A stretch of 64,000 nucleotides of DNA from Patescibacteria group bacterium (GTDB taxonomy: Bacteria > Patescibacteriota > Microgenomatia > UBA1400 > PJMF01). The notes beneath the pieces were generated by a model, which saw only the letters and a list, made by a program, of their open reading frames with translations, made no database searches and was not told the DNA's origin. Each line of letters begins with the position of its first letter. Position 1 is the first letter of the stretch. Below, one piece after another: positions 10,180 through 64,000 of the stretch. The stretch covers positions 766,528 through 830,527 of the forward strand of contig BOKX01000001.1 of NCBI GenBank assembly GCA_016861205.1, given 5' to 3'. Both the position numbers and the translations under genes were made by a program.

Positions 10180-10180
10180 A

Positions 10181-11500: not shown

Positions 11501-11546
11501 AAAACACCTCGTTTCGTGATCGCATTATAGCAACCGGCCAGCGATT

Positions 11547-34553: not shown

Positions 34554-35015
34554 ATGAAAACCTTGCTCAAAATCGCTTTGGTCATGTTCACCATTTTTGG
34601 CATCGCTGATGCCGGCTATCTGACGTACATGAGAGTAAATGGTTTAGTGCCACCGTGCAACCCCAACTTCCAGTGTGAAGATGTCTTAGCCAGCCCCTGG
34701 TCAAGTATTGGCCCCTTCCCACTCTCTGCCCTAGGACTGTTATTTTACTCAACTTTCTTCATTCTAGCCGTGCTCAACTTCGTTGATGTCCAGTCGCTCA
34801 AGCTCGGCTCGTACAATGTCAGAATGACCACTGCGGTAGCGGCAATTGGAACGTTTGGTATGTTGTTTTCAGGATATCTTCTTCTACTCATGGGGGTCAT
34901 TTTGCAAGCCTGGTGTCTCTACTGTCTCATTTCGGCGGCTATTTGCTTCACACTCGGGGGGTTGAGTCTCACCCAATACTTTTTAGCCAAGAAAGTAACG
35001 CCTGATGCAATGTAG
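34554..35015 (+). CDS. vitamin K epoxide reductase (VKOR)-family thiol-disulfide oxidoreductase
   Basis: 4-TM protein with a loop Cys pair (CNPNFQC) and a TM CxxC active site (CLYC). Confidence 0.65.
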   Translation: MKTLLKIALVMFTIFGIADAGYLTYMRVNGLVPPCNPNFQCEDVLASPWSSIGPFPLSALGLLFYSTFFILAVLNFVDVQSLKLGSYNVRMTTAVAAIGTFGMLFSGYLLLLMGVILQAWCLYCLISAAICFTLGGLSLTQYFLAKKVTPDAM

Positions 35016-48512: not shown

Positions 48513-50204
48513 ATGATATTCACTTTGCCTAAAATTTTGAGCGCCAACGCCAAGTGGCTTGAGCAGCAGCAAAACACGATTTTGTCGGCGGCGACCATCA
48601 TCACGGTTTTTAACATCGTTTCTGCCTTGTCCGGTATCATTCGCAATCGTGTTTTTATCACGGTTTTCTACGATACAGCAATCGCTTCAAAAGAAGCTTT
48701 AGACGCCTTGTATGTAGCCTTTCAGGTACCGGACATGTTGTTCCAGTTGGTAGTGTTCGGCGCGATGTCGGCTGCTTTTGTACCTGTATTTATCAGCCAT
48801 CGCCGTCAGGATGAAAAAGTCGCCTTCCACATGACATCCATTGTTATGACCCTGTTATTGGGAGTGTTTGCTCTATTTTCAGCTGTCATCTTTTTCTTAG
48901 CTGAACCAATTACTCACTGGCGAACAGGCCAGCAGTTCACCGCCACCCAAATTGAAATTGTGACGAACTTGACTCGAGTTATGTTGGCTGGCCAGTTTTT
49001 CTTAGCTATCTCTAGTTTCTTTGGCAGCATTTTAAATTCATACCAACGATTTGTGATTCCAGCTCTCGCTCCAGTCCTGTATAATGTCGGCATTTTGGCT
49101 GGCGTGTACTTCTTTGCCCCTACACTGGGTATTTACTCAGCTGGTTTGGGCGTGGTGATTGGGGCAGCCATGCACATGCTGATCCAGCTCCCGTTGGTCC
49201 TTAAGCTCGGTTTCCGCTATCAACCATCATTCGATATTAAGTACCCTGGAGTTAAATCAATTTTGGCTCTGACACCGCCACGCATTTTAGCGGTCAGTGT
49301 TGGAGAAATTCGCGACCTTTTACTCGGTTTTTTCGCCACCTCGATCGGCAACTCCAGTATGTTGATCATGCAGTTAGCACTCAACATTATGACTGCGCCG
49401 ATTCGGTTTTTCGGGGTACCAATTAGTCAAGCTGCCTTGCCATTTTTGTCGGAGGAAGTGGCCAAAAATGATCAAACCAAATTCCGCGATCTGATTGTTC
49501 AATCTCTGCACCAGATTTCCTTTTTCATCTGGCCGGCATCTGTCTTGGTCTTGATTTTGCGCGTCCCAATTGTTCGTTTGCTGTTCGGCGCTGGAAACTT
49601 ACCTTGGACGACCACGGTCACTACGAGTAAAGTAGTCGCACTGATCGCACTCTCGATCGCCGCACAAGGTTTAGTGCAGCTGATCATCCGGGCTTTCTAC
49701 GCGCTTAAAGATACTCGGACGCCTCTGTTGGTCGCTCTGGTTGACATTGTGCTCTATCTGGTAATAGCCGGTTGGACCGTGTTTGGGCTGAACTGGGGCG
49801 TCTATGGTCTAGCTCTGGCAACTAGCTTAACAGCCTGGTTTGAACTGATCGTGATCATGGCCTGCCTGGATCAGAAAGTTCGCTGCTTCAGCACCAAACC
49901 ATTCATAGTGCCGCAGTTGAAAATTCTCGCCGCTAGTTTCTTCATGGCTGTTTTTCTGTATCTGCCATTCCGGATTCTGGACGAACTGGTTTTTGATACT
50001 TCACGCACCATCGAACTGATTGCTCTGACCATTACCACCAGTACCGTCGGCATGCTGGTGTACGTCTACTTCGCAGCTCTATTCGAAATCCGGGAGCTAC
50101 GATTCTTCACTAAAGTTATTACTTCCTTTGGTCCATGGCGAAAATCACTCGAGAAAAGTCCTGAAGTTCTCACCGAAAGCAGTGTGGAAGGTGACACGCT
50201 CTGA
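48513..50204 (+). CDS. murJ: lipid II flippase MurJ (MviN family)
   Basis: 563 aa, 14-TM MOP-superfamily pattern with a conserved N-terminal region. Confidence 0.85.
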   Translation: MIFTLPKILSANAKWLEQQQNTILSAATIITVFNIVSALSGIIRNRVFITVFYDTAIASKEALDALYVAFQVPDMLFQLVVFGAMSAAFVPVFISHRRQDEKVAFHMTSIVMTLLLGVFALFSAVIFFLAEPITHWRTGQQFTATQIEIVTNLTRVMLAGQFFLAISSFFGSILNSYQRFVIPALAPVLYNVGILAGVYFFAPTLGIYSAGLGVVIGAAMHMLIQLPLVLKLGFRYQPSFDIKYPGVKSILALTPPRILAVSVGEIRDLLLGFFATSIGNSSMLIMQLALNIMTAPIRFFGVPISQAALPFLSEEVAKNDQTKFRDLIVQSLHQISFFIWPASVLVLILRVPIVRLLFGAGNLPWTTTVTTSKVVALIALSIAAQGLVQLIIRAFYALKDTRTPLLVALVDIVLYLVIAGWTVFGLNWGVYGLALATSLTAWFELIVIMACLDQKVRCFSTKPFIVPQLKILAASFFMAVFLYLPFRILDELVFDTSRTIELIALTITTSTVGMLVYVYFAALFEIRELRFFTKVITSFGPWRKSLEKSPEVLTESSVEGDTL

Positions 50205-50225: not shown

Positions 50226-50852
50226 GTGAAGAAGAAGACTGCCCAAGTTAACATCAACCTGGCGCCTAAAGATCCGTTTTTTGACACGACTCTGGGGAAG
50301 GTGTTGCGGTGGTCACTGACGGTCGGCCGCTACATCGTGATTTTCACAGAGTTAGTCGTTATTTTTAGTTTTGCCACCCGTTTCACTCTCGATAGACGCG
50401 TCACTGATTTAAACGACTCCATCTTTCAAAAGGAAAGCGTAATCAAGTCGTATGGGGACTTGGAAGATAAAGTTCGACTCACCCAGTTTCAAATCGAGCA
50501 GTACCAACAAGTCGAGCAACTCTCCAATCTTGCTGACATTTTCCCAATCTTGAGCGCCATTACACCCCAAGACGTTCGGCTGGATAATTTAGTTATTAAA
50601 CCAGCCTCGGTTAGTTTGGAAGGCACCACCCTAACTCAAAGTTCTTTTAACACTTTGATCAATAACATTCAACTTTCGGGCAAGTTCTTCAATGTCACCG
50701 TGGATCGAATCGAAAGTGATCAAGAAAAAAATCCGGGAATTCACTTTGTGTTGCATGCTGCAACACAGCCTCCAGAAGTCAAAACCACTGTTCAAAAAAC
50801 CGAAGCCAAAACCAGCGTACTAGATCGAACCCAAGGACTGGAAGGCATTTAA
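50226..50852 (+). CDS. type IV pilus assembly protein PilN-like
   Basis: N-terminal VNINLAPK (INLLP-like motif), single TM, coiled coil. Confidence 0.6.
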   Translation: MKKKTAQVNINLAPKDPFFDTTLGKVLRWSLTVGRYIVIFTELVVIFSFATRFTLDRRVTDLNDSIFQKESVIKSYGDLEDKVRLTQFQIEQYQQVEQLSNLADIFPILSAITPQDVRLDNLVIKPASVSLEGTTLTQSSFNTLINNIQLSGKFFNVTVDRIESDQEKNPGIHFVLHAATQPPEVKTTVQKTEAKTSVLDRTQGLEGI

Positions 50853-50859
50853 CAGACCT

Positions 50860-51480
50860 ATGGCTAATATTCGCACGCAACTATCTACTACCCTCAACCA
50901 GTTTTACCATCAGCCAGTGGCGAGAGTGTCACTGGAGCTGTTCTTGTCACTTGGCGCTGTCATGTTCTTTGCTGTTTTTGCCATCCGCCCCACCTTGCTG
51001 ACCATGTCTGATTTGGTCAAAGAAATCGAGGATAAAGAAAAATTGGACGGGCAGCTCGGTCAAAAAATCGCTGCACTCTACTCAGCCCAAAGCGAGTACT
51101 TAACACTTGAGCCACGGTTGCCACTTTTGAACGAGGCTATTCCAACCGCCCCCCAGCTCATCAGCTCGTTGAAGATAATTGAGAAGTTGGCGAGTGACCG
51201 GCGGCTGGTCATCTCATCACTCAACATCAACTCGATTCCCAACGAAACCTCTATAACCAACCTAACCACCCAAACAAAGCGCCAGGTAGTTTCAGTGACA
51301 GTGACAGTCATTGGTGACTATCCTGTCATTCGCGCTTTTGTGGAAGATCTTCGGCAGTTACGCCGAGTGATGATCATTGAAAGTATTGCTTTTAGTAATA
51401 GCGACAACGTCCGAGGTCAAACTCGAGGCTTGCGTGCCCAGATTCAAATCGGGCTACCATACTATGGAGCCGCCCAATGA
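50860..51480 (+). CDS. type IV pilus assembly protein PilO-like
   Basis: N-terminal TM + coiled coil + alpha/beta domain. Adjacent to pilN. Confidence 0.5.
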   Translation: MANIRTQLSTTLNQFYHQPVARVSLELFLSLGAVMFFAVFAIRPTLLTMSDLVKEIEDKEKLDGQLGQKIAALYSAQSEYLTLEPRLPLLNEAIPTAPQLISSLKIIEKLASDRRLVISSLNINSIPNETSITNLTTQTKRQVVSVTVTVIGDYPVIRAFVEDLRQLRRVMIIESIAFSNSDNVRGQTRGLRAQIQIGLPYYGAAQ

Positions 51481-51914
51481 ACACGTTCCAACGCCAACTA
51501 GCTAGTATTCGCCAACAACAACAGTTGTTGTACATCTTGATCTTCTCGTTCGCGACAATTTTGATTTGGGTCGCCATTGGTTTGTTTAGCTCTCAAAAGA
51601 AAACCGGTATCTCAGCAGAACTCCAAGAACTAGCCAAGCCGCTCAATCCCACCATTAACCGCCAGGTTTTTGACCAGCTCGACCGTGAGCGAACCTTCAC
51701 CGCAAGCGACTTGAGTAACTTTCCTATTTACAAAATCCTGCTCAGTAAAGAAGGCGCTGAACAAGTGGTCACACTCGATGTGAACGAGGCTCCCAGCGCT
51801 CCCGTTATCGTACCTCCCAGCCCGTCACCCACTCCCGTCAGTGTAGCCAGTGAGTCAGCCACCCCGAGTGCATCACCCACTCCCACTGCCACTTCATCTG
51901 GAGCCCAGCCGTAA
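51477..51914 (+). CDS. small membrane-anchored protein with P/S/T-rich tail (PilP-like position)
   Basis: Start overlaps the pilO stop. TM then a P/T-rich C-terminus. Confidence 0.4.
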   Translation: MNTFQRQLASIRQQQQLLYILIFSFATILIWVAIGLFSSQKKTGISAELQELAKPLNPTINRQVFDQLDRERTFTASDLSNFPIYKILLSKEGAEQVVTLDVNEAPSAPVIVPPSPSPTPVSVASESATPSASPTPTATSSGAQP

Positions 51915-51986
51915 CCTTCGGTGCTTTTTCGTGTTGTCACTTGAGACTTAATTCACTAAAGTTGATAGTAAGCGAGTTGGTCGCTT

Positions 51987-53600
51987 TTGTTTGCTATGCA
52001 ACCGATACCTGGTAAAAAGAGTCTGCTACGTCGTCAAATCCCCACATTAATCGGTTTGGGTATTCTGGTAGTTGGTTTAGTGGCCGGAATGCTCTTTATC
52101 GGCCAGGGCGCGGGCGTTTTTGCCCCTCGCGCTACGCCGCAAACCACCCCCAAACTCATCAAGATTACAAATGTTAGTGACACTAGCTTTACTGCTTCAT
52201 TTTTAACCGACGAAGCCACCGTTGGCTTTGTGAAGTACGGTACCGAACCTACTCGGCTCAACGCACAAGCTAGCGACGATCGTGATCAACTATCAGGAAC
52301 GGTCGGCAAGTATAGTTTGCACCACATCACTGTTCGTGGTTTGGACCCTGCCACCACCTACTACTTCACACTTGGCACAGCTAGCACAGCCGATTTTGAT
52401 AACAACGGCTCTCCGTTTACTGTTACCACCGCCAAACGAGGTGGAACACCATCGGCAGCCAAAACTAGTTATGGTAGCGTCGTCACCAGTAGTGGTACAC
52501 CGGCTGAAGGTAGTGTTGTCTACGTCACTATTAACGGTGTAGGCGAGTTGTCATCTTTGGTCAAAAACTCTGGAAGTTGGGCTGTGCCACTTTCGAATGC
52601 ACGTACCAGCGACGGGGCTAACTACGCCAAAATCGAGGACACCGATAGTATGGGCTTGATGGTTCAAGGACCAAGCGCTGCTCAAACCAGCCAGTTAACG
52701 GTCACTGTTAAAGACTCACAACCTGTCGCTGCCATTACTCTAGGTCAAAATGGCGCGGCTATGGCAGCCAAAATGACCGACGATTCAGGAACTGGTGGTC
52801 AAAGTAGCGAAACCTCCGACAGTACGACTCAAGCTACTGACTCCGCAACTACCGGCTTGACAGCAACCTCAACCGCCACAGGTTCTGGTGCGACTGGCGG
52901 CTTGAACACATTGCTAAGTCAAAGCGATTTATCAGCTAGTGGCAGTGCCACTACTGCTACAAGTAGTGCTTCACCTTCTGCCGTGGTGAACTTGGAAAGC
53001 ACCAAACCACAGGTGGTTACAACAACCCAACCAGTGATTACTGGTAAAGCTGCTCCGAACGTTCGGGTCAGGATCGAAGTTCATTCAGACAACCAGATCA
53101 ACTACGAACTGGTGGCAGACGCCAACGGTGGCTTCACACTTGACGTAGCCAAACTCTCTGAGCAACTTGAACCAGGCGAGCATACAGTCACCTATGCCTA
53201 CACAGATCCAACCACAGGACAAGAAGTAGTCAAAACCCAAACGTTCACGGTACAAGCGCCCACGAATCAGCTCGCTCAAGCGACGACCACAAAAACGACA
53301 GGCAGTTCAAGCACCAAGAGTAGCTCACCATCGCCGACGCCATTTAGCTCATCAAATCCATTCCCAGTCGGTGGTGCCAGTGGCAGCGCCACACCCAAGC
53401 CATCTCCAAGCAGTAGTCCGGCCGCTAGCGGCTCGTCCCGCGTCGCCTATCCGTCGACAAGTAGCGGCATTCCAGTCTCTGGAACCCTCAGCACCACCAT
53501 CTTCTTAGTGGCCGGTGGCTTAGTCTTGATGCTCGCTGGTACCTGGAGTTTCTGGATGGCTAAACTTTGGACTACAGATGACGGTGATCCAGAAGATTAA
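51987..53600 (+). CDS. secreted fibronectin type III-domain protein with S/T-rich region and C-terminal TM anchor
   Basis: KITNVSDTSFTASF...HHITVRGLDPATTYYFTL is an FN3 signature. C-terminal IFLVAGGLVLMLAG TM followed by an acidic tail. Confidence 0.6.
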   Translation: MFAMQPIPGKKSLLRRQIPTLIGLGILVVGLVAGMLFIGQGAGVFAPRATPQTTPKLIKITNVSDTSFTASFLTDEATVGFVKYGTEPTRLNAQASDDRDQLSGTVGKYSLHHITVRGLDPATTYYFTLGTASTADFDNNGSPFTVTTAKRGGTPSAAKTSYGSVVTSSGTPAEGSVVYVTINGVGELSSLVKNSGSWAVPLSNARTSDGANYAKIEDTDSMGLMVQGPSAAQTSQLTVTVKDSQPVAAITLGQNGAAMAAKMTDDSGTGGQSSETSDSTTQATDSATTGLTATSTATGSGATGGLNTLLSQSDLSASGSATTATSSASPSAVVNLESTKPQVVTTTQPVITGKAAPNVRVRIEVHSDNQINYELVADANGGFTLDVAKLSEQLEPGEHTVTYAYTDPTTGQEVVKTQTFTVQAPTNQLAQATTTKTTGSSSTKSSSPSPTPFSSSNPFPVGGASGSATPKPSPSSSPAASGSSRVAYPSTSSGIPVSGTLSTTIFLVAGGLVLMLAGTWSFWMAKLWTTDDGDPED

Positions 53601-53633: not shown

Positions 53634-53663
53634 TTGACAGTAGGGGTAGTTTTTTGAAATTAT
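53634..53663 (+). promoter_or_regulatory. candidate sigma70-like promoter for the Cys-rich gene array
   Basis: TTGACA, 18-nt spacer, then an extended -10 TGAAATTAT. Confidence 0.3.
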
Positions 53664-53698: not shown

Positions 53699-55492
53699 AT
53701 GATTGCTTCATCCCCAAAGTTCCGTAAAAAAGCCTCACTCACCCAACTTCCGATCAGTATGGTGGTTGGACTAGTTGTGGTAGCCATCATGGTGGTGGGG
53801 GCCGTAGCCGCTATTTACTTGTCAAATCAATCAACAGAACTTCGCCAGCAAGCCGCTGGTGAGCGAGCCGTGGTTTGTGCTCCCGGGACTTGGTCTTCGT
53901 GTGGTTCAAATGCCACACCCACCTGTCCCACTGGCCAAGCTCGACGTTGTAGCACCAACAATACCTGGGGAAACTGTCAAACACCTCCCGCCGGCACGTG
54001 CGGCGGTAGTGTGCAACGCTGCGGTGTCTGTAACAACAGTGGCGACTGTGCGGCTGGTCTAACTTGCCGGGTTGTTGCTGCAGGATATCGTTGTGTGACC
54101 AGCACTGATACCAACTCAGCCTGTCCAAATGACGGCGGCACTGGCCAGCCTATCCCAAATTCATATGGTTCATGTAGCAATGGCTGTTGTACGGTGACAC
54201 CGGCCGGCTCAGCTGCAGGCTGCTACGTTGTTGGGTACCAATGTCCAGGTGGTGAATTACCTTGTGGTCAAAATGGCAGTACTTCCAATGGCACAATGTG
54301 TAATGCGGCTGGCTACTGTGGCAGTCAGCAAGTCGATCTACGTTGTCCGGGCTACTCAACAGCAGGCTCTTTCCAAACCTCTAGCAAACCCATGAACTGT
54401 GGTAGCACGCCAACGAACCCACCAACGACCCCTTCAACACCTCCAGGTACTGGTGGCGCGCCAACCCCAGTTCCGACCCAACCCCCAACACCAATTAGTT
54501 GTGCTGGCTTGGAGATTCTCGACCCTGTTACCTTACAAAAGTTACCCACCAAACCAACTACAGGTCAGTCTGTTCGATTCCGCTGTATTGGGGCGGCCGG
54601 ATCACAACCTGATTACTACTTCTTTGCCTACACGGATGTTCTCGGTCAGGCTATGAAGCTGATTTACCAAGGTCCCAGTGACCTGACATTCCCCATCACC
54701 GTCCAACCCTACATGGTTGTGCAGTGTAACCCTTGCCGTGGCAGCGAGTGTTCTTCTGGAGAAAGCGTCAATCAAAACTGTACCTTCATCAATCAGGCTC
54801 CACCAAGCCCTACACCTAGTCCCTCACCGACACCAGTTGCAGTTGCTTGCTACAGCTTGACACAGTCAACTGTTGCCACGAATCAGAATGGTACCGTTAC
54901 CTATCGATTTACTTGTGGCGGTGCCCCTGGAAGCAACTACTATTTCTTCGCCTACCAAAGCAGCCCAACGGGACCAATGCAACCATTCGCTCAGGGTCCA
55001 GCGAACACAGCAGATCTGACAGTGGCAACCAACTCATACTTAGTTGTGCAGTGTAACCCTTGCGTCGGTAGTACCTGTTCTAGCAGTGCCTCAGTCAATA
55101 ACAACTGTACCTATCGTCAGGCGGCTATAACCAGTCCAACCCCTGTAGCCTCTGCAGTGTTGCCATCACCAACTCCAGCCATTACCCCTGGACCGCAATG
55201 TTTAGGCATCACTTTGTCGAACACTAATGCACAGGTCGGTGATGTGGTTACTGCTACCTGTACCCAAGTTCCAGGTGCCGCCCGCTACATTAGCCGTGTT
55301 ATGTTACCAAGCGGTCAGATCCGGGATCTAAACATGACTGGTCGAGTATCAGAGCAAGTACAAATCACTAGTGCCGGTACATACGTTTTCCAGTGTCAGA
55401 TTTGTACCGACAACACGACTGCCAGTTGTTTCGCCTACGAACCAACTTCAGTCATATATGAAGACCCAATTGCACCACCAGGAACCAATTAG
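53699..55492 (+). CDS. cysteine-rich secreted mosaic protein (paralog 1)
   Basis: N-terminal leader/TM ...ELRQQAAG, a Cys-dense region, P/T linkers, and three copies of a ~85-aa domain (VRFRC.GAAGS..YYFFAY...VQCNPC.GS.CSS..SVN.NCT). Confidence 0.6.
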   Translation: MIASSPKFRKKASLTQLPISMVVGLVVVAIMVVGAVAAIYLSNQSTELRQQAAGERAVVCAPGTWSSCGSNATPTCPTGQARRCSTNNTWGNCQTPPAGTCGGSVQRCGVCNNSGDCAAGLTCRVVAAGYRCVTSTDTNSACPNDGGTGQPIPNSYGSCSNGCCTVTPAGSAAGCYVVGYQCPGGELPCGQNGSTSNGTMCNAAGYCGSQQVDLRCPGYSTAGSFQTSSKPMNCGSTPTNPPTTPSTPPGTGGAPTPVPTQPPTPISCAGLEILDPVTLQKLPTKPTTGQSVRFRCIGAAGSQPDYYFFAYTDVLGQAMKLIYQGPSDLTFPITVQPYMVVQCNPCRGSECSSGESVNQNCTFINQAPPSPTPSPSPTPVAVACYSLTQSTVATNQNGTVTYRFTCGGAPGSNYYFFAYQSSPTGPMQPFAQGPANTADLTVATNSYLVVQCNPCVGSTCSSSASVNNNCTYRQAAITSPTPVASAVLPSPTPAITPGPQCLGITLSNTNAQVGDVVTATCTQVPGAARYISRVMLPSGQIRDLNMTGRVSEQVQITSAGTYVFQCQICTDNTTASCFAYEPTSVIYEDPIAPPGTN

Positions 55493-55517
55493 CAGCCAGC
55501 ACTCAGCGGAATAACGT

Positions 55518-56468
55518 ATGACGACCACACCTATCAAACAACCAATCCGAGCCACAAAGCTGTTTGGCTTTGATCGCAAAGCAGTCTTAACTGTGTTGGC
55601 GTTGGTGGTGTTCGTAATTGCCGGCCTCAGTGGTGTCTTAATTGCCCAACGTCAGCGTCAGATCAGTGGCCCAGTTGCTCCCACGGCTCCAGGTTCACGC
55701 CCACAGGCAGCGTTTCAACAGTTACATACTTGCACTGTGGCACTCACCGTTCCCAACCCCATCCCGACGCCCACACCGTTTATTAGTCCGTCACCAAGCT
55801 TAGTTCCGACACCTACTCCATTTGTTAGCCCATCACCTAGCTTAGTCCCAACTCCCATCCCGACACCCACTCCCACCACCTACTCATGTAACAGTTCGTG
55901 TACCACGAACGCACAGTGTCAGACTGCGAACGCCGCTTACATTTGTTCCAGTGGTAAATGCCGCCTCAACGGCAATGTCGGCAGCACTACCTGTACCTAT
56001 AAATGTAACAGTAGTTGCGTCAGTGACGCGGAGTGTCAAACTGTCAATCCAGACTACATCTGTTCCAGTGGCAAATGTCGTATGAAGTACAATCCCAATG
56101 CCACCAACTGTAGTTATAGTTGCCCAGTCATCAATGCAAACCCCAAACCACCAGTTACCACCTGTGCGCCGGCCGCCACAGAAACGGGCACCATCACTTG
56201 GTACTGGACACCGATCAGTGGGCACAACAGCACCACCCAGTATCAAATCCAGGTGCTGAACAGCAACAATCAGGTCGTCGGCGAAGATAAGGGCTGCAAA
56301 CCCGGTGACGAGTACTACAACTGTTACCAAGGCCACTGTAGCTACACCAGCTATCACTTGCCTGGTACATATAAGGCCCGAATAAAAGCCTGTACCAGCA
56401 GCTGTCCGTCAACAACCACGCAGGGATTCAGAACCACAGTCAGCAAGACGATTGGTGTCTGCCAATAA
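55518..56468 (+). CDS. cysteine-rich secreted mosaic protein (paralog 2)
   Basis: Leader ...PQAAFQQ, PTPTP linkers, two repeats CNSSCx3AxCQTxNxxYICSSGKCR. Confidence 0.6.
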   Translation: MTTTPIKQPIRATKLFGFDRKAVLTVLALVVFVIAGLSGVLIAQRQRQISGPVAPTAPGSRPQAAFQQLHTCTVALTVPNPIPTPTPFISPSPSLVPTPTPFVSPSPSLVPTPIPTPTPTTYSCNSSCTTNAQCQTANAAYICSSGKCRLNGNVGSTTCTYKCNSSCVSDAECQTVNPDYICSSGKCRMKYNPNATNCSYSCPVINANPKPPVTTCAPAATETGTITWYWTPISGHNSTTQYQIQVLNSNNQVVGEDKGCKPGDEYYNCYQGHCSYTSYHLPGTYKARIKACTSSCPSTTTQGFRTTVSKTIGVCQ

Positions 56469-56493
56469 ATCCCAAAAATGAGCCAAAAGTTCC

Positions 56494-56526
56494 AGAGCCA
56501 GCGTCAGCTGGCTCTGTTAGTTCTAG
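56494..56526 (+). terminator. candidate intrinsic terminator/attenuator between array genes
   Basis: AGAGCCAGC-GTCA-GCTGGCTCT then GTTAGTTCTAG. Confidence 0.4.
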
Positions 56527-56687
56527 ACTGGCGATGAGCGCACTTGGCTTCGGCTGAGCCTCTCCCGATGCTTTACCGAATAAATCGACTATTGACGAGT
56601 GGTCAACAAAATCGCTATCCTGATGATTAGGCTTGTCACGAGTGGTTCTGTCGTTGGAACACCGCAGACAGCTCTACAAAACGAATC

Positions 56688-58760
56688 ATGATTAACGCTA
56701 CCCCTTCACTGCCAACTGCTTCATCACAACCTCCAAAAGACCCGACTTTTGGCGCTAAGCCGGCTCCAATGGCCATGAAACCAAAAGCCAAAACCAACTG
56801 GAGAATGATTCTGGGACTCGGTGTTTTGTTACTGGTGATCGTCGGTGGCGCCGCTGGGTTCTACTTGACCCAAATGGGTGGACTGGATGTGCGACAACAG
56901 GCAGCAGTAACCAATCCATGTAGTGATATTGCGGCAACGTGTTTAGTTGGTTCAGCTAGCTGTCCTGCCGGCCAGAATAAAGTAGGTACTTGTTCAGATC
57001 GAGGCGAACAGGGCTCTTGCTGTAAACAGCCGGGCGGCACTGTAGCCTGTGCTGACTCAGCTGCTACTTGCAATGTTGGCGCGACAAGTTGTCCAAGTGG
57101 TCAATTAAGAACCGGTTCATGTTCAGATCGTGGTGACCAGGGATCATGCTGCAAACCAGCTAATGTGTCACAGCCATGTTCAGATTCTACTGCCACTTGT
57201 ACTCTTGGTGCCTGTGGAAGCGGCCAAGTTAGTGTAGGATCATGTTCTGATCGAGGTGAACAAGGCTCTTGCTGCAAAACGGCACCATCATGTTATGACT
57301 TGAACCAAGGTTGTATCCGAATTACTTCTGCAGAGTGCAGCAATGGTGTTGGTGCAGGAAAGTACACAGACCTTGCTCAATGCCAAGCAGCACGTTGTAC
57401 TCCACAACAGTTGGTTGCAATCAATTGTCCAACCGGCGAGGAACCTTATTGTAATAATGGGACGCCTGCTTGCCGATTGAGCGCCTCAACCAATCCAAAT
57501 CCAGTTGCTCTACAAGGCTGTAACCAAGCGTGCAATAGTAGTGCATATTGTACCTGTCCCGCTGGTTGCGCAGTTCAAACTCAAATTTCTATTGGTCAAA
57601 ACTGTGGCGGCAATACTACACCTACTTTAACTGCCTGTAATCAAACCTGTAACAGTCAAGCGGGTTGCAACTGTCCTTCTGGCTGTGCTCAAAGCTTCGC
57701 TCAAAATGGAGGCACCTGTGGTGGTAACACCACTCCAACTCTGACTAGCTGTACCCAAACCTGTACTGCTCAGGCCGGTTGCAACTGTCCATCTGGCTGT
57801 TCACGAACCTTTGCTAACAATGGCCAAACTTGTGGCAGTGCTGGCACCGGCGGCACCATCACCTACTGTCCGAACTCGCCTACCACCCCAGCTCGCCGAT
57901 ATGTTAAGTTCACCTGTCCGAACGGCTGTCAGTTAACCACCGAACAGGGTGTAACTGCCTGGCGCTGCTATGAGAGACGCCAAGACTCCACCACTCCTCT
58001 GACCCTGAACGGTGAGTGTGGTCAGGTCGACGTTTTATCAGGCGATACTGATGCAACCTATTGTGGCTACACTGAGTACACCTGTGATCAGGCTCGCTGC
58101 CAGCCTCAGCAGACCCCGCCTCCAAGTACCCCTCCAGCTCAGGCCAGTTGTGTCCGCTTAGAGTTGCTAGATGAAACCGGTAGTACTGTCCTGAATCAAA
58201 CTCCAGCCAGTGGCAATGTTCGCTTCCGCTGTGTGGGTGCCCCAGGTAGCAACTACTACTTCTTTACCGCCCGTAGCAACCAGACTGGTCCACTTAACCT
58301 AATCTACCAGGGTGACAGTAGCATGACGTTCCCAATTGCTATTACCGATTACTTGCACGTTCAATGTAACCCATGTATCGGCACATCATGTGCGAGTGCC
58401 GAGAACGTTAACACCAGTTGTAACTTCGAGTACACCCGTCAGATTCCACCCGGACCACAATGTCTGGCTCTGTGGATGGCCAGTACCGAGAATCCAACTG
58501 TGTCTCTGACCAACCCACACGTCGGTGACAGTATCTTGCTCGGTTGTGGCCAAGTTCAGGGCGCAGCTCGCTACGTCTTCCGAGTGACCGAGCCAGATGG
58601 TAACGTCGTGAACCTGCAGCCGCTCGATGTGACTGCTGCGCCACGCACCTCACAGGCTTACACTATTACTAAGCAAGGCCGACACTATGCGCAATGTCAG
58701 ATCTGTACCGGCCAAGCAGACAGCACCTGTTTCGCGTACGAAACCTTACCTAGCAACTAA
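56688..58760 (+). CDS. cysteine-rich secreted mosaic protein (paralog 3)
   Basis: Leader ...DVRQQAAV. 3x ~42-aa repeat (C.D...TC.VG..SCP.GQ...GSCSDRGEQGSCCK), 3x ~38-aa repeat (CNQTCNSQAGCNCPSGC...CGGNTTPTLT), then YYFF/VQCNPC domain copies. Confidence 0.6.
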   Translation: MINATPSLPTASSQPPKDPTFGAKPAPMAMKPKAKTNWRMILGLGVLLLVIVGGAAGFYLTQMGGLDVRQQAAVTNPCSDIAATCLVGSASCPAGQNKVGTCSDRGEQGSCCKQPGGTVACADSAATCNVGATSCPSGQLRTGSCSDRGDQGSCCKPANVSQPCSDSTATCTLGACGSGQVSVGSCSDRGEQGSCCKTAPSCYDLNQGCIRITSAECSNGVGAGKYTDLAQCQAARCTPQQLVAINCPTGEEPYCNNGTPACRLSASTNPNPVALQGCNQACNSSAYCTCPAGCAVQTQISIGQNCGGNTTPTLTACNQTCNSQAGCNCPSGCAQSFAQNGGTCGGNTTPTLTSCTQTCTAQAGCNCPSGCSRTFANNGQTCGSAGTGGTITYCPNSPTTPARRYVKFTCPNGCQLTTEQGVTAWRCYERRQDSTTPLTLNGECGQVDVLSGDTDATYCGYTEYTCDQARCQPQQTPPPSTPPAQASCVRLELLDETGSTVLNQTPASGNVRFRCVGAPGSNYYFFTARSNQTGPLNLIYQGDSSMTFPIAITDYLHVQCNPCIGTSCASAENVNTSCNFEYTRQIPPGPQCLALWMASTENPTVSLTNPHVGDSILLGCGQVQGAARYVFRVTEPDGNVVNLQPLDVTAAPRTSQAYTITKQGRHYAQCQICTGQADSTCFAYETLPSN

Positions 58761-58774
58761 TATAAACACACTGT

Positions 58775-59941
58775 ATGACCGACAACTTTAAACCAACCAG
58801 CTTCATCAAACAGCCACCGGCGGGAGTACCAGCTCCCAATACTCCGGCTGTTGGTTTAAACCCGGCTCCAGATGCTGGTGTACCAATGAGCACAGGTCCA
58901 GCCCCTAAATCGCCTAAGAAAATCTTTGGTATGGAAGCCAAGAGTCTGGCAGCCGTACTTGGCTTGACCTTGTTCTTCGTAGTTGCCATGGGCGGGGTTG
59001 CAATTTCACTGCGCCAACGAGTAGCTCAGGGGCCAGCCGCCCCCACCGCTCCTCAATCCCGACCTCAGGCAGATGTCGGTCAGATCGGCAGCTGTTCATT
59101 GTTCTTCGACGCCGAGCCAGTCGCCTCACCATACTGTAGTAGTATCAGTATTGTCGGCAACGCTGATCCAAACACAGCGACTAGCTTAACGTTCAGTTGT
59201 GCCGGCGCTCCTGGCAGTGACTACTACTTCTTCTCGTATCGAACAAGCCCAACTGGAGCTCTGCAGCTGCTGAGTTCTGGAACTGAGGCCACTTCATCTG
59301 CCATTAGTATGGCAGGTGTGAACTACTTGCACGTTCAATGTAACCCACACATTGGAGCTAACGGCTCGAGTGCCAGCAGTGTTAACGAGAACTGTAACTA
59401 TGAATTCACCCGCGGTGCCACCCCGACACCAAGTCCAAGTGTCACGCCTACTCCTACACCCACACCAACGGTGAGTCCGAGTGTGACACCCACACCGACC
59501 CCAACCCCCAGCAGTACACCTGGTGTAACTCCGTCACCCACCTACAGTTGCAACAGTAGCTGTTCGACCAATGCTCAATGTGCCACAGCCAACAGCAACT
59601 TCATCTGTTCCAATGGCTCGTGCCGGCTGAGTTCGAACCCAAGCAGCACCACTTGTAGTACGGTCGGCTGTAACGAGGTCTGTTCGTCCAACTCAGACTG
59701 TTCGAACACGTCACACATCTGTAGTGGAGGCCGCTGCCGCTTAGACAGTAATCCAGACAGTAGTACGTGTACACCTCCATCTACTACCACGACTACCACT
59801 GTGGCTCAACAAACTGGCACCCCATCTCAGCCAACCTTGCCAGCCGAGCTGCCACAAACTGGGGCTGAGGACTTTGGAACTTGGCTCAAGGCTGGTGTCG
59901 TCATCCTCTTGGGAGGCGCGGCTCTGCTACTGTTCCTATAA
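58775..59941 (+). CDS. cysteine-rich surface protein with C-terminal LPXTG-like sorting signal (paralog 4)
   Basis: Leader ...PQSRPQA, a YYFF/VQCNPH domain, PTPTP linkers, 2x CNSSC...ICS.G.CRL repeats. C-terminal LPQTG + hydrophobic segment. Confidence 0.6.
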   Translation: MTDNFKPTSFIKQPPAGVPAPNTPAVGLNPAPDAGVPMSTGPAPKSPKKIFGMEAKSLAAVLGLTLFFVVAMGGVAISLRQRVAQGPAAPTAPQSRPQADVGQIGSCSLFFDAEPVASPYCSSISIVGNADPNTATSLTFSCAGAPGSDYYFFSYRTSPTGALQLLSSGTEATSSAISMAGVNYLHVQCNPHIGANGSSASSVNENCNYEFTRGATPTPSPSVTPTPTPTPTVSPSVTPTPTPTPSSTPGVTPSPTYSCNSSCSTNAQCATANSNFICSNGSCRLSSNPSSTTCSTVGCNEVCSSNSDCSNTSHICSGGRCRLDSNPDSSTCTPPSTTTTTTVAQQTGTPSQPTLPAELPQTGAEDFGTWLKAGVVILLGGAALLLFL

Positions 59942-59956
59942 ACTAAAGGACCTCAG

Positions 59957-60886
59957 ATGCCCAAATCAACCCCGCTGACAAATCGATACAGACGGCGACG
60001 TATCTCGGGCTTGTTAACTGGTGGCCTGATCACGCTGCTAGTGTTGGTCGGCGGTGCAATTGGCTATTCGCAGGTTTTCAGGAACCAAGACTTAGCTTCT
60101 CAAGCTAGTGTGGCTGACGGAAATAGTCGAGCTTGCACAGCAGGCACTGTCGGGACAGAGTATGAGGGCACTCAAGGCAGCAACGGCTGCCAAAGCAATG
60201 AAGTTCCCGTGTACCGTTGTGTCAGGGACACTCATCGATCGGGCAACACCACGACATATACATACCACTGGCAACGAATCCGCTGTTCATATCGATCTGG
60301 CGCCACTACCTGTAACGGAACAACTGGCCGAGCGCAGGGTTGCCCTTGTGCTGATGATAGTCAGTGCAGTACACATAACTGTGCAGTGACGAGCTCCAGT
60401 GGTCCCAAAACGTGTGCCCCCTTTGACCCAGGTCCATTAACTCGCCCTGGTCAGCCTGGGCCTGGTGGCCAACCAGCTCCTGCTCAACCGACTCCAACAA
60501 GTGTTTCACAGCCGAATCCTGGCACACCGGGGCAACCTACTAACCCAACACAACCTGTCGTTCCAACGTGTACCGTAGTACTCAGTAAAAAGGATGCTAA
60601 GGGCAAAATGCAGCCTGTGCCAACTGCGCAACTCAAAAAAGATGATGTTGTGTACCTGAGCTGCCCCACCACAGGTCAGCCCACAACTACCTTCTGGGGT
60701 TTCTATCGGATAAATGCTGCTGGGACCGGTTACGACTTTGTGGCAGGTGGCGATACCGTTGGCAACCCACCATCAACAGTTATTCCCATTGTTCTGAAAA
60801 CTGGTGATCACTTTGAGTGCGCCCCCATGACCTTAGTCAATAACATTTCGAGTTATCATGCCAAATGTACGGCAGATATTAGATAA
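59957..60886 (+). CDS. cysteine-rich secreted protein (paralog 5)
   Basis: Leader RRRRISGLLTGGLITLLVLVGGAIGYSQVFRNQDLASQAS, a P/G/Q linker, and a C-terminal ~110-aa domain ending GDHFECAP. Confidence 0.55.
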   Translation: MPKSTPLTNRYRRRRISGLLTGGLITLLVLVGGAIGYSQVFRNQDLASQASVADGNSRACTAGTVGTEYEGTQGSNGCQSNEVPVYRCVRDTHRSGNTTTYTYHWQRIRCSYRSGATTCNGTTGRAQGCPCADDSQCSTHNCAVTSSSGPKTCAPFDPGPLTRPGQPGPGGQPAPAQPTPTSVSQPNPGTPGQPTNPTQPVVPTCTVVLSKKDAKGKMQPVPTAQLKKDDVVYLSCPTTGQPTTTFWGFYRINAAGTGYDFVAGGDTVGNPPSTVIPIVLKTGDHFECAPMTLVNNISSYHAKCTADIR

Positions 60887-60895
60887 GGATGGACC

Positions 60896-61933
60896 ATGTT
60901 CAGCACCAAACCACTCCCTAATAAACGAGCCCAACGTCGTCGATTGTCAGCAGTCATCACTGGTGGACTGATCATGACGCTGATGGTGGTCGGTGGCGTG
61001 ATTGGTTTCTCAGGTTTATTCCAGTCTCAAGATCTTGCTTCACAGGCAGCAGGTAGTATGTCGTGTGGTGGCCGCAGTGCTGGCTCTACTTGGAGAGGGG
61101 CAACCGGAACTGAGAGCTGTTCAAGCAATCAGCAACCCGCTTTTACCTGTGTGGAAGTCACTATCACAGGCAGTAAAAATCAAAAGACTAAGGTCTTGCA
61201 AGCTTTTAAAACTGGCTGTGTCACAACTGCTCCGTTAGTGACCGGCGCTCAGACCCAACAGAAGTGTGCCGATGCGCAGTCAACCTGTAACATTGGCAGT
61301 ACCACTTGTGGGAGCGCTTTTACCAAAACGGGTTCCTGCAGTGATCGACAAGACCAAGGAGTCTGCTGCAAAAAAACCGTCACTGCTAACCCCTTGACCT
61401 CATTGGCTAATCTGACCAAACCAGCCCCAGCCGCCAACACTCAGCCAGCCCAAACCGCACCGGCAACCAATCCAAGCCAAGGGTCAGCACCACAGGCAAA
61501 TCAGGGTACTGGTGGTCAAGCTCCAGCTGCACCTCTAGCCCCACAGCCTGGTGTTGAGCCAACCTGTGAAGTGACGTTGAACACCAAGACTATGACCGAT
61601 CAGCAGATCGCTGCCCAGGGCAAGCCGTTGACTGATGATGTTTTGGCCAAGTACATCACGCCGATTACTAGTTACAGCTTCGGCAATCAAGTGGCCTTCC
61701 ACTGTAATGTCACCAGCGGTGGACCAGTGGTAAACGTCTGGTGGGCCCTGTATCGAGTTGAGAACAACACGTACGTCGCCAAACTGAGTGGCAGTAAAAA
61801 TGCCAACAGCAGTTTGCTCGATCAGAGCTTGGTAAACTTGCAACCAGGTGACCACTTCGAGTGTGTGCCGACCTACATTGGCCCAAATGGTGTGGAGACC
61901 GAGGGCAAGAAGTGCAAACAAGTTTACTGGTAA
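60896..61933 (+). CDS. cysteine-rich secreted protein (paralog 6)
   Basis: Leader paralogous to the 59957 gene, one SDRQDQGVCCK module, a P/A/Q linker, and a C-terminal domain with GDHFECVP. Confidence 0.55.
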   Translation: MFSTKPLPNKRAQRRRLSAVITGGLIMTLMVVGGVIGFSGLFQSQDLASQAAGSMSCGGRSAGSTWRGATGTESCSSNQQPAFTCVEVTITGSKNQKTKVLQAFKTGCVTTAPLVTGAQTQQKCADAQSTCNIGSTTCGSAFTKTGSCSDRQDQGVCCKKTVTANPLTSLANLTKPAPAANTQPAQTAPATNPSQGSAPQANQGTGGQAPAAPLAPQPGVEPTCEVTLNTKTMTDQQIAAQGKPLTDDVLAKYITPITSYSFGNQVAFHCNVTSGGPVVNVWWALYRVENNTYVAKLSGSKNANSSLLDQSLVNLQPGDHFECVPTYIGPNGVETEGKKCKQVYW

Positions 61934-61992: not shown

Positions 61993-62066
61993 GCGCCTAT
62001 AGCTCAATTGGTTAGAGCGTCAAGCTTATACCTTGATGGTTCTAGGTTCGAGTCCTAGTGGGCGCA
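61993..62066 (+). tRNA. tRNA-Ile with anticodon UAU (AUA-decoding)
   Basis: GCGCCTA-TA-GCTC-AATTGGTTA-GAGC-G-TCAAG-CTTATAC-CTTGA-TGGTT-CTAGG-TTCGAGT-CCTAG-TGGGCGC-A. The anticodon loop reads U33-UAU-A37. Confidence 0.75.
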
Positions 62067-62075
62067 CTTGGATTT

Positions 62076-63077
62076 TTAGTTATTTCCTGCGTTGAGGTTT
62101 TTAAAAATCCCAGCAAACATATTTCTAACCGAGATTGGCAACCGCTCGTCACTGGCAAACTGCGTGGTAATCCGCAACAACTCGACTGCCGGCAACTCCT
62201 GCAACCCGTTTGTCCAAGCCTCAACCGCGGTCAAGTCCTCGGCCAAACTGAGCACTTCCGCTAACTTCATCAAATATAAAGAATCATCAACCCAGTCAGT
62301 GACCACTTCCAAACTGTGTACCACGTTGGGAGTGGCTGTCACCAATGGAGCTGGGTGGCAGAACTCGCCGATCTTGGTAATTGCTTCTGCCATGGGACCG
62401 CGAAAAGCACCTTGATCACTCAGTTTTCCAAATGCATCGGCATCGAGATCGGTAAAGTTTCTCAAAAATTTCTCAATTTGTGCTAAGGTACCAGAGCCAA
62501 TTTGGGTACTGAGCGTATACCAATTGGTATCGGGATCAACGCCACACAGTCTGAGAATCACCTCGTGTACTGCCGGTGAACTAGTCAAGAGTGGCCAGTC
62601 ATATGCTTTATAAATCCGAATGTCGTCGGCAAAATGCATACCCTGCAACCTTCCCTGTAACTTGGTGCGAGCCGCCCGCCATCCATACTGCCTCAGCAAA
62701 CCATAATCGTAGGTACCAGCCAAAAATTGGGCCACCGCCCGAGTGTTCACCTGACCGCTAAAATCAAGTGGCTTCATCCCTCCTTGAACGGCTTCTCTGC
62801 GAAATCCAGCAGCCGCAAAGGCTTGCGTGAGTTGTTCGTAGGCCTGCGGCGTTGTAACCAGGATGTGTTTCAAGTTGCCGAACGTCCAGGCTTCGCCAGT
62901 TGTCGCCAGCGCCAACAAACATGCCTCCGCCGTGGGTGGCAGTTTTTTCGATAGTGATCGAACATACTCGGTCTCGCTTTTGAGCGTCCGTGATCGATCA
63001 TGATCAATGGTGAGTGTTTGGGCTTCGGGTGTCAACATAGCAGGCTCAACAACCTGTAATATACGCCTATTTGTCAA
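62076..63077 (-). CDS. hypothetical protein (333 aa)
   Basis: Long ORF with no recognisable motif. Confidence 0.5.
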   Translation of the reverse strand: MTNRRILQVVEPAMLTPEAQTLTIDHDRSRTLKSETEYVRSLSKKLPPTAEACLLALATTGEAWTFGNLKHILVTTPQAYEQLTQAFAAAGFRREAVQGGMKPLDFSGQVNTRAVAQFLAGTYDYGLLRQYGWRAARTKLQGRLQGMHFADDIRIYKAYDWPLLTSSPAVHEVILRLCGVDPDTNWYTLSTQIGSGTLAQIEKFLRNFTDLDADAFGKLSDQGAFRGPMAEAITKIGEFCHPAPLVTATPNVVHSLEVVTDWVDDSLYLMKLAEVLSLAEDLTAVEAWTNGLQELPAVELLRITTQFASDERLPISVRNMFAGIFKNLNAGNN

Positions 63078-63098: not shown

Positions 63099-64000
63099 CT
63101 AGTCCCAAATATGCAAGTCGAGTAAATCAATAATGGGACCGAGAACGGCAATTGGCTGCTTGACTGTTCGGTCAGCCAATACTCGAGTAAAATGTTCGTT
63201 CAATCGTTGCTTGTACGACTGTTGATAGTAAGGACTCAGGTTTGGGAACAGGTACTCAATTTCAGCATCGGTGATCGGCACAAAGACGCCACAGTGTTTA
63301 CTCAAGTCGAAATCACTCCAACCTTCACCTGGTTGGAGCTGCGGGAATCTGCCAAACAATGACTCAAACAGCGAGACTCCTAAACTATAGGCATCTCCCC
63401 ACTTGCTATAGGTTTCGGCTCTTGGTGCCGTATTAAAGTACTTCTCAGGCAACAGGTAATACGCTGTACCAACCCAGTTATTACTATCAGGGACCGGAAA
63501 CAAGGCCTCATTCGGATTTTCGCCACCAAAAAGTGTGAAATTAAAATCATAAATCCGCACATGGCACGGGTTCATAGCTAAAAAGTTGTCTGGCTTTACA
63601 TCATTGTGACTATCAACGTAATGATAAAAGTGGATTAAGCTACGCACTGCATTTACCCAGATTTTTGCCCACTCACCAAGATTTTCCTGACGAAGTGGCT
63701 CACTGCCCATGACATACTCACCGGTTGAACTGGTCAATGTGTAACTTTCGAGCGACTGCCCTTCTAAATATGACAGGATAATAAAACCATCGTCACTGAC
63801 TCCATATAAGTTGGGTGTAAAAACTTCATTTTCAGGCAGGGCCAAATACACCATCAGTTCACGCAGTAAAAACATGTCGACCCAAGCTTTGTGCTGAGCA
63901 GCATTGATCTCTTTGATAAGGCTTGGGATCCATTGGTCAAGCTCGTTTCTGACATAGGCGGGGGTCAGCTTGGCCAAGCCGCCGAACAAAGCGTTTAGAT
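63099..64000 (-). CDS. eukaryotic-like protein kinase domain protein (5'-truncated by window end)
   Basis: HNDVKPDNFL (HxDxKPxN catalytic loop), DFNFT (DFG-like), GTAYYLLPE (APE-like). The frame stays open upstream to the window edge; the track's M at 63989 is a TTG. Confidence 0.6.
   Translation of the reverse strand, partial: LNALFGGLAKLTPAYVRNELDQWIPSLIKEINAAQHKAWVDMFLLRELMVYLALPENEVFTPNLYGVSDDGFIILSYLEGQSLESYTLTSSTGEYVMGSEPLRQENLGEWAKIWVNAVRSLIHFYHYVDSHNDVKPDNFLAMNPCHVRIYDFNFTLFGGENPNEALFPVPDSNNWVGTAYYLLPEKYFNTAPRAETYSKWGDAYSLGVSLFESLFGRFPQLQPGEGWSDFDLSKHCGVFVPITDAEIEYLFPNLSPYYQQSYKQRLNEHFTRVLADRTVKQPIAVLGPIIDLLDLHIWD

Follow-up and report, generated by a model that had tools for sequence, protein, structure and literature searches.

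What does a tandem array of six cysteine-rich genes encode in a member of the Patescibacteria? The array lies on the 1.149-Mb contig BOKX01000001.1 of a Patescibacteria group bacterium (assembly GCA_016861205.1), in a stretch of 64,000 nucleotides (nt; forward-strand positions 766,528 to 830,527) that was analysed as a whole and is called the window here. It spans positions 53699-61933 and comprises six consecutive open reading frames (ORFs) on the + strand, G1 to G6, according to the ORF list of the window. Patescibacteria account for much of bacterial diversity and seem to live attached to other cells, and we know of no molecules implicated in this close contact beyond the type IV pili (T4P) of a few cultivated Saccharibacteria. 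The best supported interpretation, drawn from sequence comparisons, is that the six genes encode exported, disulfide-rich surface proteins organized in two-gene units, called A+B, where B would carry a sortase-type wall anchor and A would be its variable partner. The genes are the following:

53699..55492, + strand: G1, 597 aa, 39 Cys, A-type
55518..56468, + strand: G2, 316 aa, 21 Cys, B-type
56688..58760, + strand: G3, 690 aa, 63 Cys, A-type
58775..59941, + strand: G4, 388 aa, 17 Cys, B-type
59957..60886, + strand: G5, 309 aa, 14 Cys, divergent member
60896..61933, + strand: G6, 345 aa, 14 Cys, paralog of G5

The intergenic gaps from G1 to G6 measure 25, 219, 14, 15, and 9 nt, which bears out an earlier sequence-only reading of this DNA that described six same-strand genes with short gaps and a single one of about 220 nt. 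Cysteines account for 6.5, 6.6, 9.1, 4.4, 4.5, and 4.1% of the residues of G1 to G6, respectively, and for 2.5% or less in nearly all remaining ORFs of the window. The four proteins encoded directly upstream (PilN, PilO, a 145-aa ORF, and an FN3 protein) have none. The paralogy among the six genes is mosaic and far beyond chance, as revealed by all-against-all BLASTP (E values of 6e−59 for G1-G3, 2e−42 for G2-G4, 5e−34 for G5-G6, 4e−25 for G1-G4, and 8e−16 for G3-G6).

Is this arrangement found elsewhere? A word-indexed search with G3 retrieved only 9 proteins. The HMMER profile search for A-type relatives returned 736 representatives at E ≤ 1e−3, 340 at ≤1e−10, and 76 at ≤1e−30, and a search with G6 found no homolog outside its own 90% cluster. 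The closest labelled relatives were "Patescibacteria group bacterium" metagenome-assembled genomes (MAGs) and one "Candidatus Woesebacteria" MAG. Synteny was compared over roughly a dozen lineages, with pattern-limited genome and metagenome scans giving 5 and 4 loci; the related loci compared with the window are labelled L002 to L020. An A-type gene immediately followed by a B-type gene was invariant in the loci of a dozen lineages. One such pair was present in L003, L005, L010, L011, L015, L016, L018, and L019, two in L017/L020, and three (G1+G2, G3+G4, and G5+G6) in the window's species (window, L002, and L008). In a more distant relative (L007, 54-64% identity), G1 to G4 are intact and in order, the G2 ortholog (64% identity) lying in the + frame. 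These comparisons indicate that the array is made of three tandem copies of a two-gene A+B unit, with G5/G6 as a divergent extra pair. Since A-then-B is invariant while its neighbourhoods vary between loci, the pair is the functional unit, and the PilN/PilO and MacB-type neighbourhoods described below are frequent companions. G2, which has no sorting signal, and G5/G6, which have an even cysteine count and lack the QCQ domain, would be derived variants.

Two of the related contigs, L009 and L010 (CAYQZC010000061.1 and CAYISM010000013.1), belong to public MAGs titled "Pseudomonadales" and "Gammaproteobacteria." Given their gene content (G1-G4 orthologs with 54-64% identity in L009 and the window's arrangement of PilN, PilO, FN3, A, and B in L010), these labels are probably wrong, as a result of binning or taxonomy errors.

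How might these proteins leave the cell? The alignment of 98 A-type proteins revealed a long leader with the consensus KKK-x-[TM]-[FY]YL[ST]QQxQD[LVI]RQQA, a transmembrane (TM) segment of ~21 residues, glycines at positions −28 and −18, and a leucine at −11. Many of these proteins begin with MINA. The R, Q, Q, and A of the RQQA motif were 99-100% invariant; the motif ended at a median residue of 80 and no cysteine was found upstream of it. Conservation collapses directly after RQQA, with the first cysteine ~6 residues further on, and this abrupt end suggests a processing site. The B leader reads ...LRQR...VAPxAPxSxPxA and is followed by an invariant C[ST]LxF strand with a single cysteine and then by a linker rich in proline and threonine (P/T). 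Within the window, such leaders were found only in the six array genes. The sequence-only reading had attributed to these proteins a common N-terminal region (basic, TM, and Q/A-rich segments) and low-complexity P/T linkers; both are present, the former as two leader types. A literature search for the leader motif or for the A/B protein family found no description. No class III prepilin signal (a glycine, then F/M-x-x-x-E before the hydrophobic helix) was found in the six proteins or in the 98 family members. Such a signal, which is that of type IV pilins and pseudopilins, was rejected, as the conserved motif follows the hydrophobic stretch and no glycine followed by FxxxE is present. In L018, two Peptidase_C39_2 genes (2414-4519) lie ~3.5 kb upstream of the A+B pair, in an otherwise unrelated context, and a link to leader processing is possible.

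The VKOR-like gene pointed out in the sequence-only reading was confirmed by its Pfam match:

34554..35015, + strand: VKOR homolog (PF07884, E = 3.8e−22)

VKOR is the likely candidate for the oxidant of extracytoplasmic disulfide formation, a role drawn from Meheust 2019 (PMC6744442). Sortase, VKOR, and thiol-disulfide oxidoreductases are enriched in bacteria of the candidate phyla radiation (CPR) (PMC6744442). The gene is flanked by those of a Crp-family regulator and a lactate/malate dehydrogenase.

What follows the leaders was read with module HMMs made from the window copies. The sequence-only reading claimed at least five shuffled Cys-dense modules, and we counted D, E, C, H, MID, YYFF/QCQ, F, Gn, and G2C. 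The architectures are as follows:

G1: leader A (ELRQQA), Cys-rich N-terminal region, two YYFF, C-terminal QCQ
G2: leader B with VAPTAPGSRPQA, lone Cys strand HTCTVAL, P/T linker, two C, unique 8-Cys C-terminal domain
G3: leader A (MINA..., TM, DVRQQA), three D, H, three E, MID, YYFF, QCQ
G4: leader B with AAPTAPQSRPQA, lone Cys strand GSCSLFF, YYFF minus two Cys, P/T linker, two C, LPQTG with hydrophobic tail
G5: leader A variant QDLASQA, Gn, P/Q-rich linker, F
G6: leader A variant, Gn, one D, F

In A-type proteins generally, the leader precedes a highly variable set of small Cys-knot-like modules, then MID and/or C, and finally QCQ; in B-type proteins, the 6-Cys C repeats are usually followed by LPx[T/S/A]G and a hydrophobic tail. 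Among these modules, the positions of the following are of use below:

57858..58112, + strand: MID domain of G3, 8 conserved Cys, all-beta
58470..58751, + strand: QCQ domain of G3, conserved C-terminal FN3-like beta-sandwich with five conserved Cys
56913-57281 (G3) and 61259-61375 (G6): D modules of 38-39 aa, C-x6-C-x6-C-x9-C-x8-CC-K

Among the best ~150 of the 736 A-type matches, QCQ was present in 146 (nearly always C-terminal), the A leader in 118, module C in 45, MID in 35, and YYFF in 9; D or E modules were found only in the window's species cluster, and the median cysteine content was 7%. A homolog search with the 88-aa MID alignment gave no match, even though known members hold MID, which looks like a limit of sensitivity. 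Beyond QCQ, one member (P0006, from L020) carries a W/Y/G-rich repeat region of ~210 aa (residues ~470-682), so that QCQ does not form the C terminus in every case. YYFF is homologous to QCQ (HHalign probability of 96.9%, E = 1.5e−10, with a profile of the four window YYFF copies). HHalign detected no homology of F, G2C, Gn, D, E, H, and C to QCQ, YYFF, or MID, and the modules other than YYFF/QCQ showed no detectable relation to each other. An AlphaFold2 model of G3 residues 385-690, based on a 17-row alignment, was all-beta with a mean pLDDT of 79 (~90 for MID and QCQ and 60-80 for YYFF). The YYFF and QCQ modules are predicted to adopt a seven-stranded beta-sandwich that superposes on solved FN3 domains. 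They differ from FN3 and Ig-like structures in their conserved cysteines (five in QCQ and six in YYFF) and in sequence, with 7-12% identity to such structures and no Pfam fn3 or Ig model at threshold or even at E ≤ 10. The modelled MID domain has no structural match in the PDB.

The statement in the sequence-only reading that none of the modules is recognisable as a known family still stands after HMM searches. No Pfam or NCBIfam family reached threshold with the six full proteins, nor did any Pfam family with the isolated modules, and nothing significant came out of sequence searches of the PDB, for which the queries were the G1 and G3 proteins and the A4 and A5 profiles. PADLOC models of anti-phage defence had no match at E ≤ 0.01 among the six proteins or their neighbours. 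Below threshold, the F module of G6 was the only one with an Ig match (Ig_3, E = 0.014, 16.3 bits for a cutoff of 30). The D module has six cysteines ending in CC, with a spacing similar to that of beta-defensins, and misses the gathering score of Beta defensin (PF00711): the three G3 copies together reached 20.4 bits for a cutoff of 21, single ones 11.7-15.4 bits over nearly the whole model, and the G6 copy scored nothing. A bacterial beta-defensin-like fold would be unusual. In L013, a 712-aa protein (9569-11707) fuses A-type features (leader and MID) with B-type features (C repeats and an LPSSG tail), and four copies of a ~55-aa repeat (SWNSxSIS...SSCT...LRQxxWC...YFRxVPL) are inserted in one of its C modules.

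What would hold A and B together? Cysteine numbers were odd in 108 of the 113 complete A-type proteins (binomial P ~ 3e−26), as well as in all 13 A-type partners and all 13 complete B-type proteins of the loci. Accordingly, G1 (39), G2 (21), G3 (63), and G4 (17) have odd counts, and G5 and G6 an even one (14 each). Each of the five cysteine columns of QCQ shows 93-100% conservation, and 131 of 142 copies have all five (CCCCC), leaving one cysteine unpaired; YYFF adds a sixth. C2 and C3 of QCQ occupy the positions of the canonical Ig B-F disulfide. The YYFF domain of G4 (59132-59410) has lost two of its six conserved cysteines together (QCNPC to QCNPH and TSC to ANG), both of which are kept in the L007 ortholog. 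This joint loss of C4 and C5 points to a C4-C5 disulfide, and with C2/C3 at the Ig B-F site, C1 would be left over in QCQ. From this pattern, the spare cysteine of A is most likely C1, in the motif GPxC[LI]. The C modules of B-type proteins have six cysteines each, which leaves the leader-proximal cysteine as the spare one in B. The L013 fusion has the A leader, MID, C repeats, and LPSSG, lacks QCQ and the B leader with its Cys strand, and has 40 cysteines, an even number; it fits A and B acting as one unit joined via QCQ and the Cys strand of B. The odd cysteine counts in both A and B, together with this fusion, led us to propose an A-S-S-B heterodimer.

How could such a heterodimer be retained at the surface? 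The LPXTG-type anchor that had been noticed in the window was confirmed in G4 as LPQTG (nt 59849-59863) followed by the hydrophobic tail AEDFGTWLKAGVVILLGGAALLLFL. The motifs of B-type orthologs were LPQTG, LPETG, LPRTG, LPQSG, LPQAG, LPVSG, LPESG, and LPVAG. A basic tail was found only in the B-type protein of L018, which ends in ...RFANRKKI. Sortase has been reported as near-ubiquitous in Microgenomates (PMC6744442), and none was found in any related locus examined.

Are the genes maintained, and how do they vary? Compared with L002, the window was 99-100% identical over G1-G2 and G4-G6, and G3 contained a region whose DNA does not resemble the 870 nt found at this place in L002, after which identity recovered gradually by ~58660:

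56883..57842, + strand: strain-variable cassette of G3 (D, H, and E modules)

The synonymous divergence (dS) from L008 was 0.24 for G3 and 0.77 for G4, against ~0.02 for flanking genes, and the ratio of nonsynonymous to synonymous divergence (dN/dS) was 0.02-0.15 for all six genes. The replaced cassette, the raised dS of G3 and G4, and the low dN/dS indicate that diversification at G3-G4 occurs by import or replacement of alleles under purifying selection and that the genes are not decaying. Point-mutational positive selection was rejected as the source of the strain differences, dN/dS being well below 1. The lack of matches to database families, and one public annotation that put minus-strand ORFs across the G2 ortholog region, might be taken to mean that the genes are not functional, either as chance ORFs in low-complexity DNA or as decaying pseudogenes. 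This has next to no probability in view of the purifying selection on all six genes, of the intact L007 orthologs (including G2 in its + frame), of the hundreds of profile matches, and of the confident structure models; the conservation data refute it. Pseudogenisation in relatives, by which the sequence-only reading could have been overturned, was thus not observed. That reading had proposed a candidate undescribed adhesion or surface system, possibly for host interaction, and had suggested checking whether it is lineage-specific and variable between related genomes. Its interpretation was supported in part. Variability was found, with the replacement of the G3 cassette, and the family has no annotation; a restriction to one lineage was not found, since the A+B pair occurs in many Patescibacteria and the array is not an invention of this lineage only.

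We propose, tentatively and with a confidence somewhat short of even, that the six genes are a triplicated two-component disulfide-rich surface unit, in which a wall-anchored B holds a disulfide-linked variable A, together forming a strain-variable attachment structure. Export of A and B would rely on Sec, and their oxidative folding would take place beyond the membrane, VKOR being the probable oxidant; a sortase whose gene lies outside the locus would attach B to peptidoglycan. A disulfide between the two proteins would link A, through its spare cysteine, to the single cysteine near the N terminus of B. Cleavage of the leaders, if it occurs after RQQA and SxPxA, would give a chain in the order wall, B, S-S, A, with the variable N-terminal modules of A as the exposed tip that binds a host cell, a substrate surface, or another partner. 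Leader removal and the A-S-S-B link would place the variable modules distally, which would explain why the conserved domains are at the C terminus of A. Strains would exchange A modules by recombination, and the triplication with divergence (G1+G2, G3+G4, and G5+G6) would broaden or vary the binding repertoire.

Several observations weigh against this proposal. Concerning the anchor, the G4 tail is borderline for TIGR01167 (LPXTG_anchor; 15.6 bits for a cutoff of 15.9), and the C termini of G4 and most of its orthologs, such as ...LLLFL or ...LLVI, are free of K/R, whereas the definition of the LPXTG signal includes a positively charged tail after the hydrophobic segment (PMC4617865, PMC4155245). 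G2 is devoid of an LPXTG sorting signal, the L007 ortholog of G4 appears to carry a TM segment and an RRRR tail instead, and no sortase ORF was found within the 64-kb window by a scan for the TLxTC motif. G5 and G6 fall outside the A/B scheme. Concerning the disulfide, 24 of the 113 A-type proteins have 6 cysteines, not 5, in the C-terminal region, so C1 is not always the spare one, and the odd cysteine could instead represent a free thiol, a thioester, or a homodimer link. Finally, a hydrophobic core of TM length and an invariant Q at −3 are unusual in a substrate of signal peptidase I, and it may be that the leaders remain membrane anchors, in which case the variable part of A would be near the membrane and not at the tip.

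This last point leads to another role, unlikely in our view, in which A and B would be structural envelope tethers rather than adhesins. Held by uncleaved signal anchors, they would bridge the membrane to the wall or S-layer, whether or not a disulfide joins A to B, and their variability would come from phage or predator pressure on exposed envelope proteins. Besides the atypical hydrophobic stretch and −3 residue, the long conserved cytoplasmic N terminus (MINA...) would suit such a function, as would the FN3 protein with TM segments at both ends and the cell-wall genes nearby. The latter are envelope genes of the window at 31175-33781, 37486-38703, 38803-41163, and 48513-50204 (two class A PBPs, a GH18 protein, and MurJ). 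The abrupt stop of conservation after RQQA is instead the pattern expected of a cleavage site, and the full allelic replacement of a membrane-proximal region in near-identical strains is easier if this region is exposed.

Which other genes accompany the pair? The array follows pilN-like, pilO-like, and FN3 genes, as first read from the sequence and now confirmed by Pfam matches:

50226-50852, + strand: PilN-like (PF05137, 1e−8)
50860-51480, + strand: PilO-like (PF04350, 5e−7)
51477-51914, + strand: 145-aa TM protein
51987-53600, + strand: FN3-type protein of 537 aa (PF16656, 4e−10), with an N-terminal TM and a C-terminal IPVSG + TM
50226..53600, + strand: conserved upstream block from PilN to FN3, cysteine-free, in synteny across loci

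The FN3 protein shows, after its N-terminal TM, the conserved FAPRATPQTTPK. Like its orthologs (L003, L005, and L010), it ends with [LIV]P[VE]SG, a TM segment, and a short tail, an ending kept in all lineages, and it may be another sortase-type substrate.

The order MurJ, PilN, PilO, ~148-aa protein, FN3, A, and B was found in the window, L008, L003/L004, L005, and L011; L010 keeps the block without the ~148-aa gene, and L016 shows only the end of FN3 at the contig edge. Could the six proteins then be accessories of a T4P or filament-like machine, i.e., cargo, tip adhesins, or envelope-spanning parts assembled with the PilN/PilO-like, 145-aa, and FN3 proteins? The contigs sharing the order from MurJ to B have only 30-70% protein identity to the window, and its conservation over such a distance argues for a link. 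Moreover, the window PilN retains an INLAP motif resembling INLLP, which is the motif of PilN that binds PilM. T4P are also the known host-binding devices of cultivated Patescibacteria (PMC12206443). Nevertheless, we consider this unlikely. The block is absent at the A+B loci of L013, L017/L020, and L018, the six proteins have their conserved motif after the TM and no class III prepilin signal, and none of pilM, pilB, pilC, pilT, and pilD was found among the ~30 window ORFs scanned. The housekeeping genes of S20, LepA, and MurJ share the same synteny, and the PilN/PilO order may simply be inherited.

Downstream of the pair, the genes of a MacB-type system (a MacA-like adaptor, an ABC ATPase, and an FtsX/MacB permease) were found directly or past at most one short unannotated ORF in L005, L011, L013, L015, L016, L017, and L019, with three genes in between in L002/L008, and beyond an insertion in L003. 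The proteins could be clients of this transporter, extracted from the membrane by mechanotransmission or processed to secreted, disulfide-rich, defensin-like peptides acting as toxins or antimicrobials. The transporter indeed follows the pair in most loci, including those without PilN/PilO, the D modules come close to Beta defensin, and MacAB of Escherichia coli, which exports a disulfide-bonded enterotoxin, offers an analogy. This seems quite unlikely, as the transporter is not adjacent to the pair in L010 and L018, the D and E modules are confined to the window's species cluster, and no protease or processing sites are evident between modules. What is conserved, namely FN3-like domains and a wall-sorting signal, is not toxin-like, and Cys-rich repeats often match Cys-rich Pfam families spuriously.

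Both neighbourhoods might have a place in a broader and improbable version of the A+B proposal. The pair would then be a widespread, unrecognised display system of Patescibacteria, with new sorting leaders, dedicated processing machinery (possibly the PilN/PilO-like block and/or the MacB-type ABC), A displayed through a disulfide on a sortase-anchored B, and exchangeable cassettes for host recognition.

Other elements concern the expression and the borders of the array. The hairpin and promoter-like sequence that had been placed in the long gap were found again, the latter as a consensus match, and the region held 13 promoter-like sites, against 7.9 ± 2.7 in shuffles:

56493..56516, + strand: terminator-like hairpin 3′ of the G2 stop codon, in the 219-nt gap, with a 10-bp stem and a weak T tract
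56592..56621, + strand: sigma-70-like promoter-like site ahead of G3, TTGACG-18-TATCCT, consensus match only
53634..53663, + strand: best promoter-like site of the region, TTGACA-18-AATTAT with TG, 36 nt 5′ of G1, consensus match only
61993..62067, + strand: tRNA-Ile(TAT), 59 nt 3′ of G6, at the downstream edge of the array

The expanded array lies between the FN3 gene and this tRNA gene; tRNA genes are classic sites of insertion and recombination. Beyond it, an ORF of 333 aa (62076-63077, − strand) without a Pfam match adjoins a Ser/Thr kinase-like gene (63099-63989); it has 90% amino acid identity to its L008 counterpart (dS of 0.43), and its neighbours are ~99.7% identical. An ORF of 648 aa (43058-45004, − strand) with 2 Cys matched neither Pfam nor PADLOC.

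How does the A+B unit compare with known surface systems? It resembles the sortase-anchored LPXTG surface proteins and adhesins of the MSCRAMM type (microbial surface components recognizing adhesive matrix molecules) in the export leader, the modular and partly Ig/FN3-like ectodomain, the P/T-rich linkers, and the C-terminal LPx[T/S/A]G and hydrophobic segment of B. Oxidative folding linked to VKOR would also resemble that of Actinobacteria. Unlike LPXTG proteins, those of the array belong to no known adhesin family, have 4-9% Cys in small Cys-knot-like modules, and carry a long leader with a family-specific invariant motif; the G4 signal lacks the basic tail, and the variable A itself carries no sorting signal and would rely on B. 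Sortase-assembled pili are similar in that neighbouring genes specify a distal subunit for binding and an LPXTG subunit anchored in the wall, which become covalently joined. They differ in that no pilus-specific sortase is present in the locus and the link proposed here is a disulfide, not an isopeptide. The six proteins also gave no match to CnaA/CnaB domains, the pilin motif, or the E-box, nor to any pilin family of Pfam or NCBIfam. In yeast a-agglutinin, the wall-anchored subunit Aga1p holds the binding subunit Aga2p via intermolecular disulfides. The proposed anchor B and variable binder A are alike in function only, the A-B link being deduced from cysteine parity, since the yeast proteins are eukaryotic, anchored to glucan through GPI, and unrelated in sequence.

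The closest precedent within the CPR is a 14-gene cluster of Peribacteria, with ~7% Cys and predicted to be extracellular, that varies between strains and for which a role in attachment was proposed (Anantharaman et al. 2016, PMC4736985). Such clusters were found alongside sortase, T4P, and a disulfide-forming protein (PMC4736985). Both cases represent clustered, strain-variable genes of Cys-rich extracellular proteins in a CPR lineage. Compared by description only, the Peribacteria proteins are much larger (mean of 1,655 aa), and the published account mentions no pair structure, leader motif, cysteine parity, or domains in common. Clustered strain-variable Cys-rich proteins of CPR bacteria were thus already known from Peribacteria. 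What is new is this family, with its two leaders and obligate A+B pairing, its odd-cysteine rule and the architecture that this implies, MID without a structural relative, the triplication in this lineage, and the replacement of the G3 cassette.

The family can be recognised by its sequence, through the leader motif, the MID and QCQ domains, the B-type partner, and the odd-cysteine rule, and has hundreds of unannotated members. MID provides a confidently modelled small disulfide-rich domain without a match among solved structures. The hypervariability of the cassette at the strain level is the signature expected of a recognition surface exposed to hosts or phages. The simple and testable architecture suggested here, a wall anchor with a disulfide-linked variable binder, bears on the attachment of episymbionts to their hosts. 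If the pairing is correct, it would give a handle for predicting host range, for labelling the surface of uncultured CPR cells and enriching them, and for annotating CPR "hypothetical proteins." If the broader display system also proved true, the A modules would decide which host cells these episymbionts can attach to.

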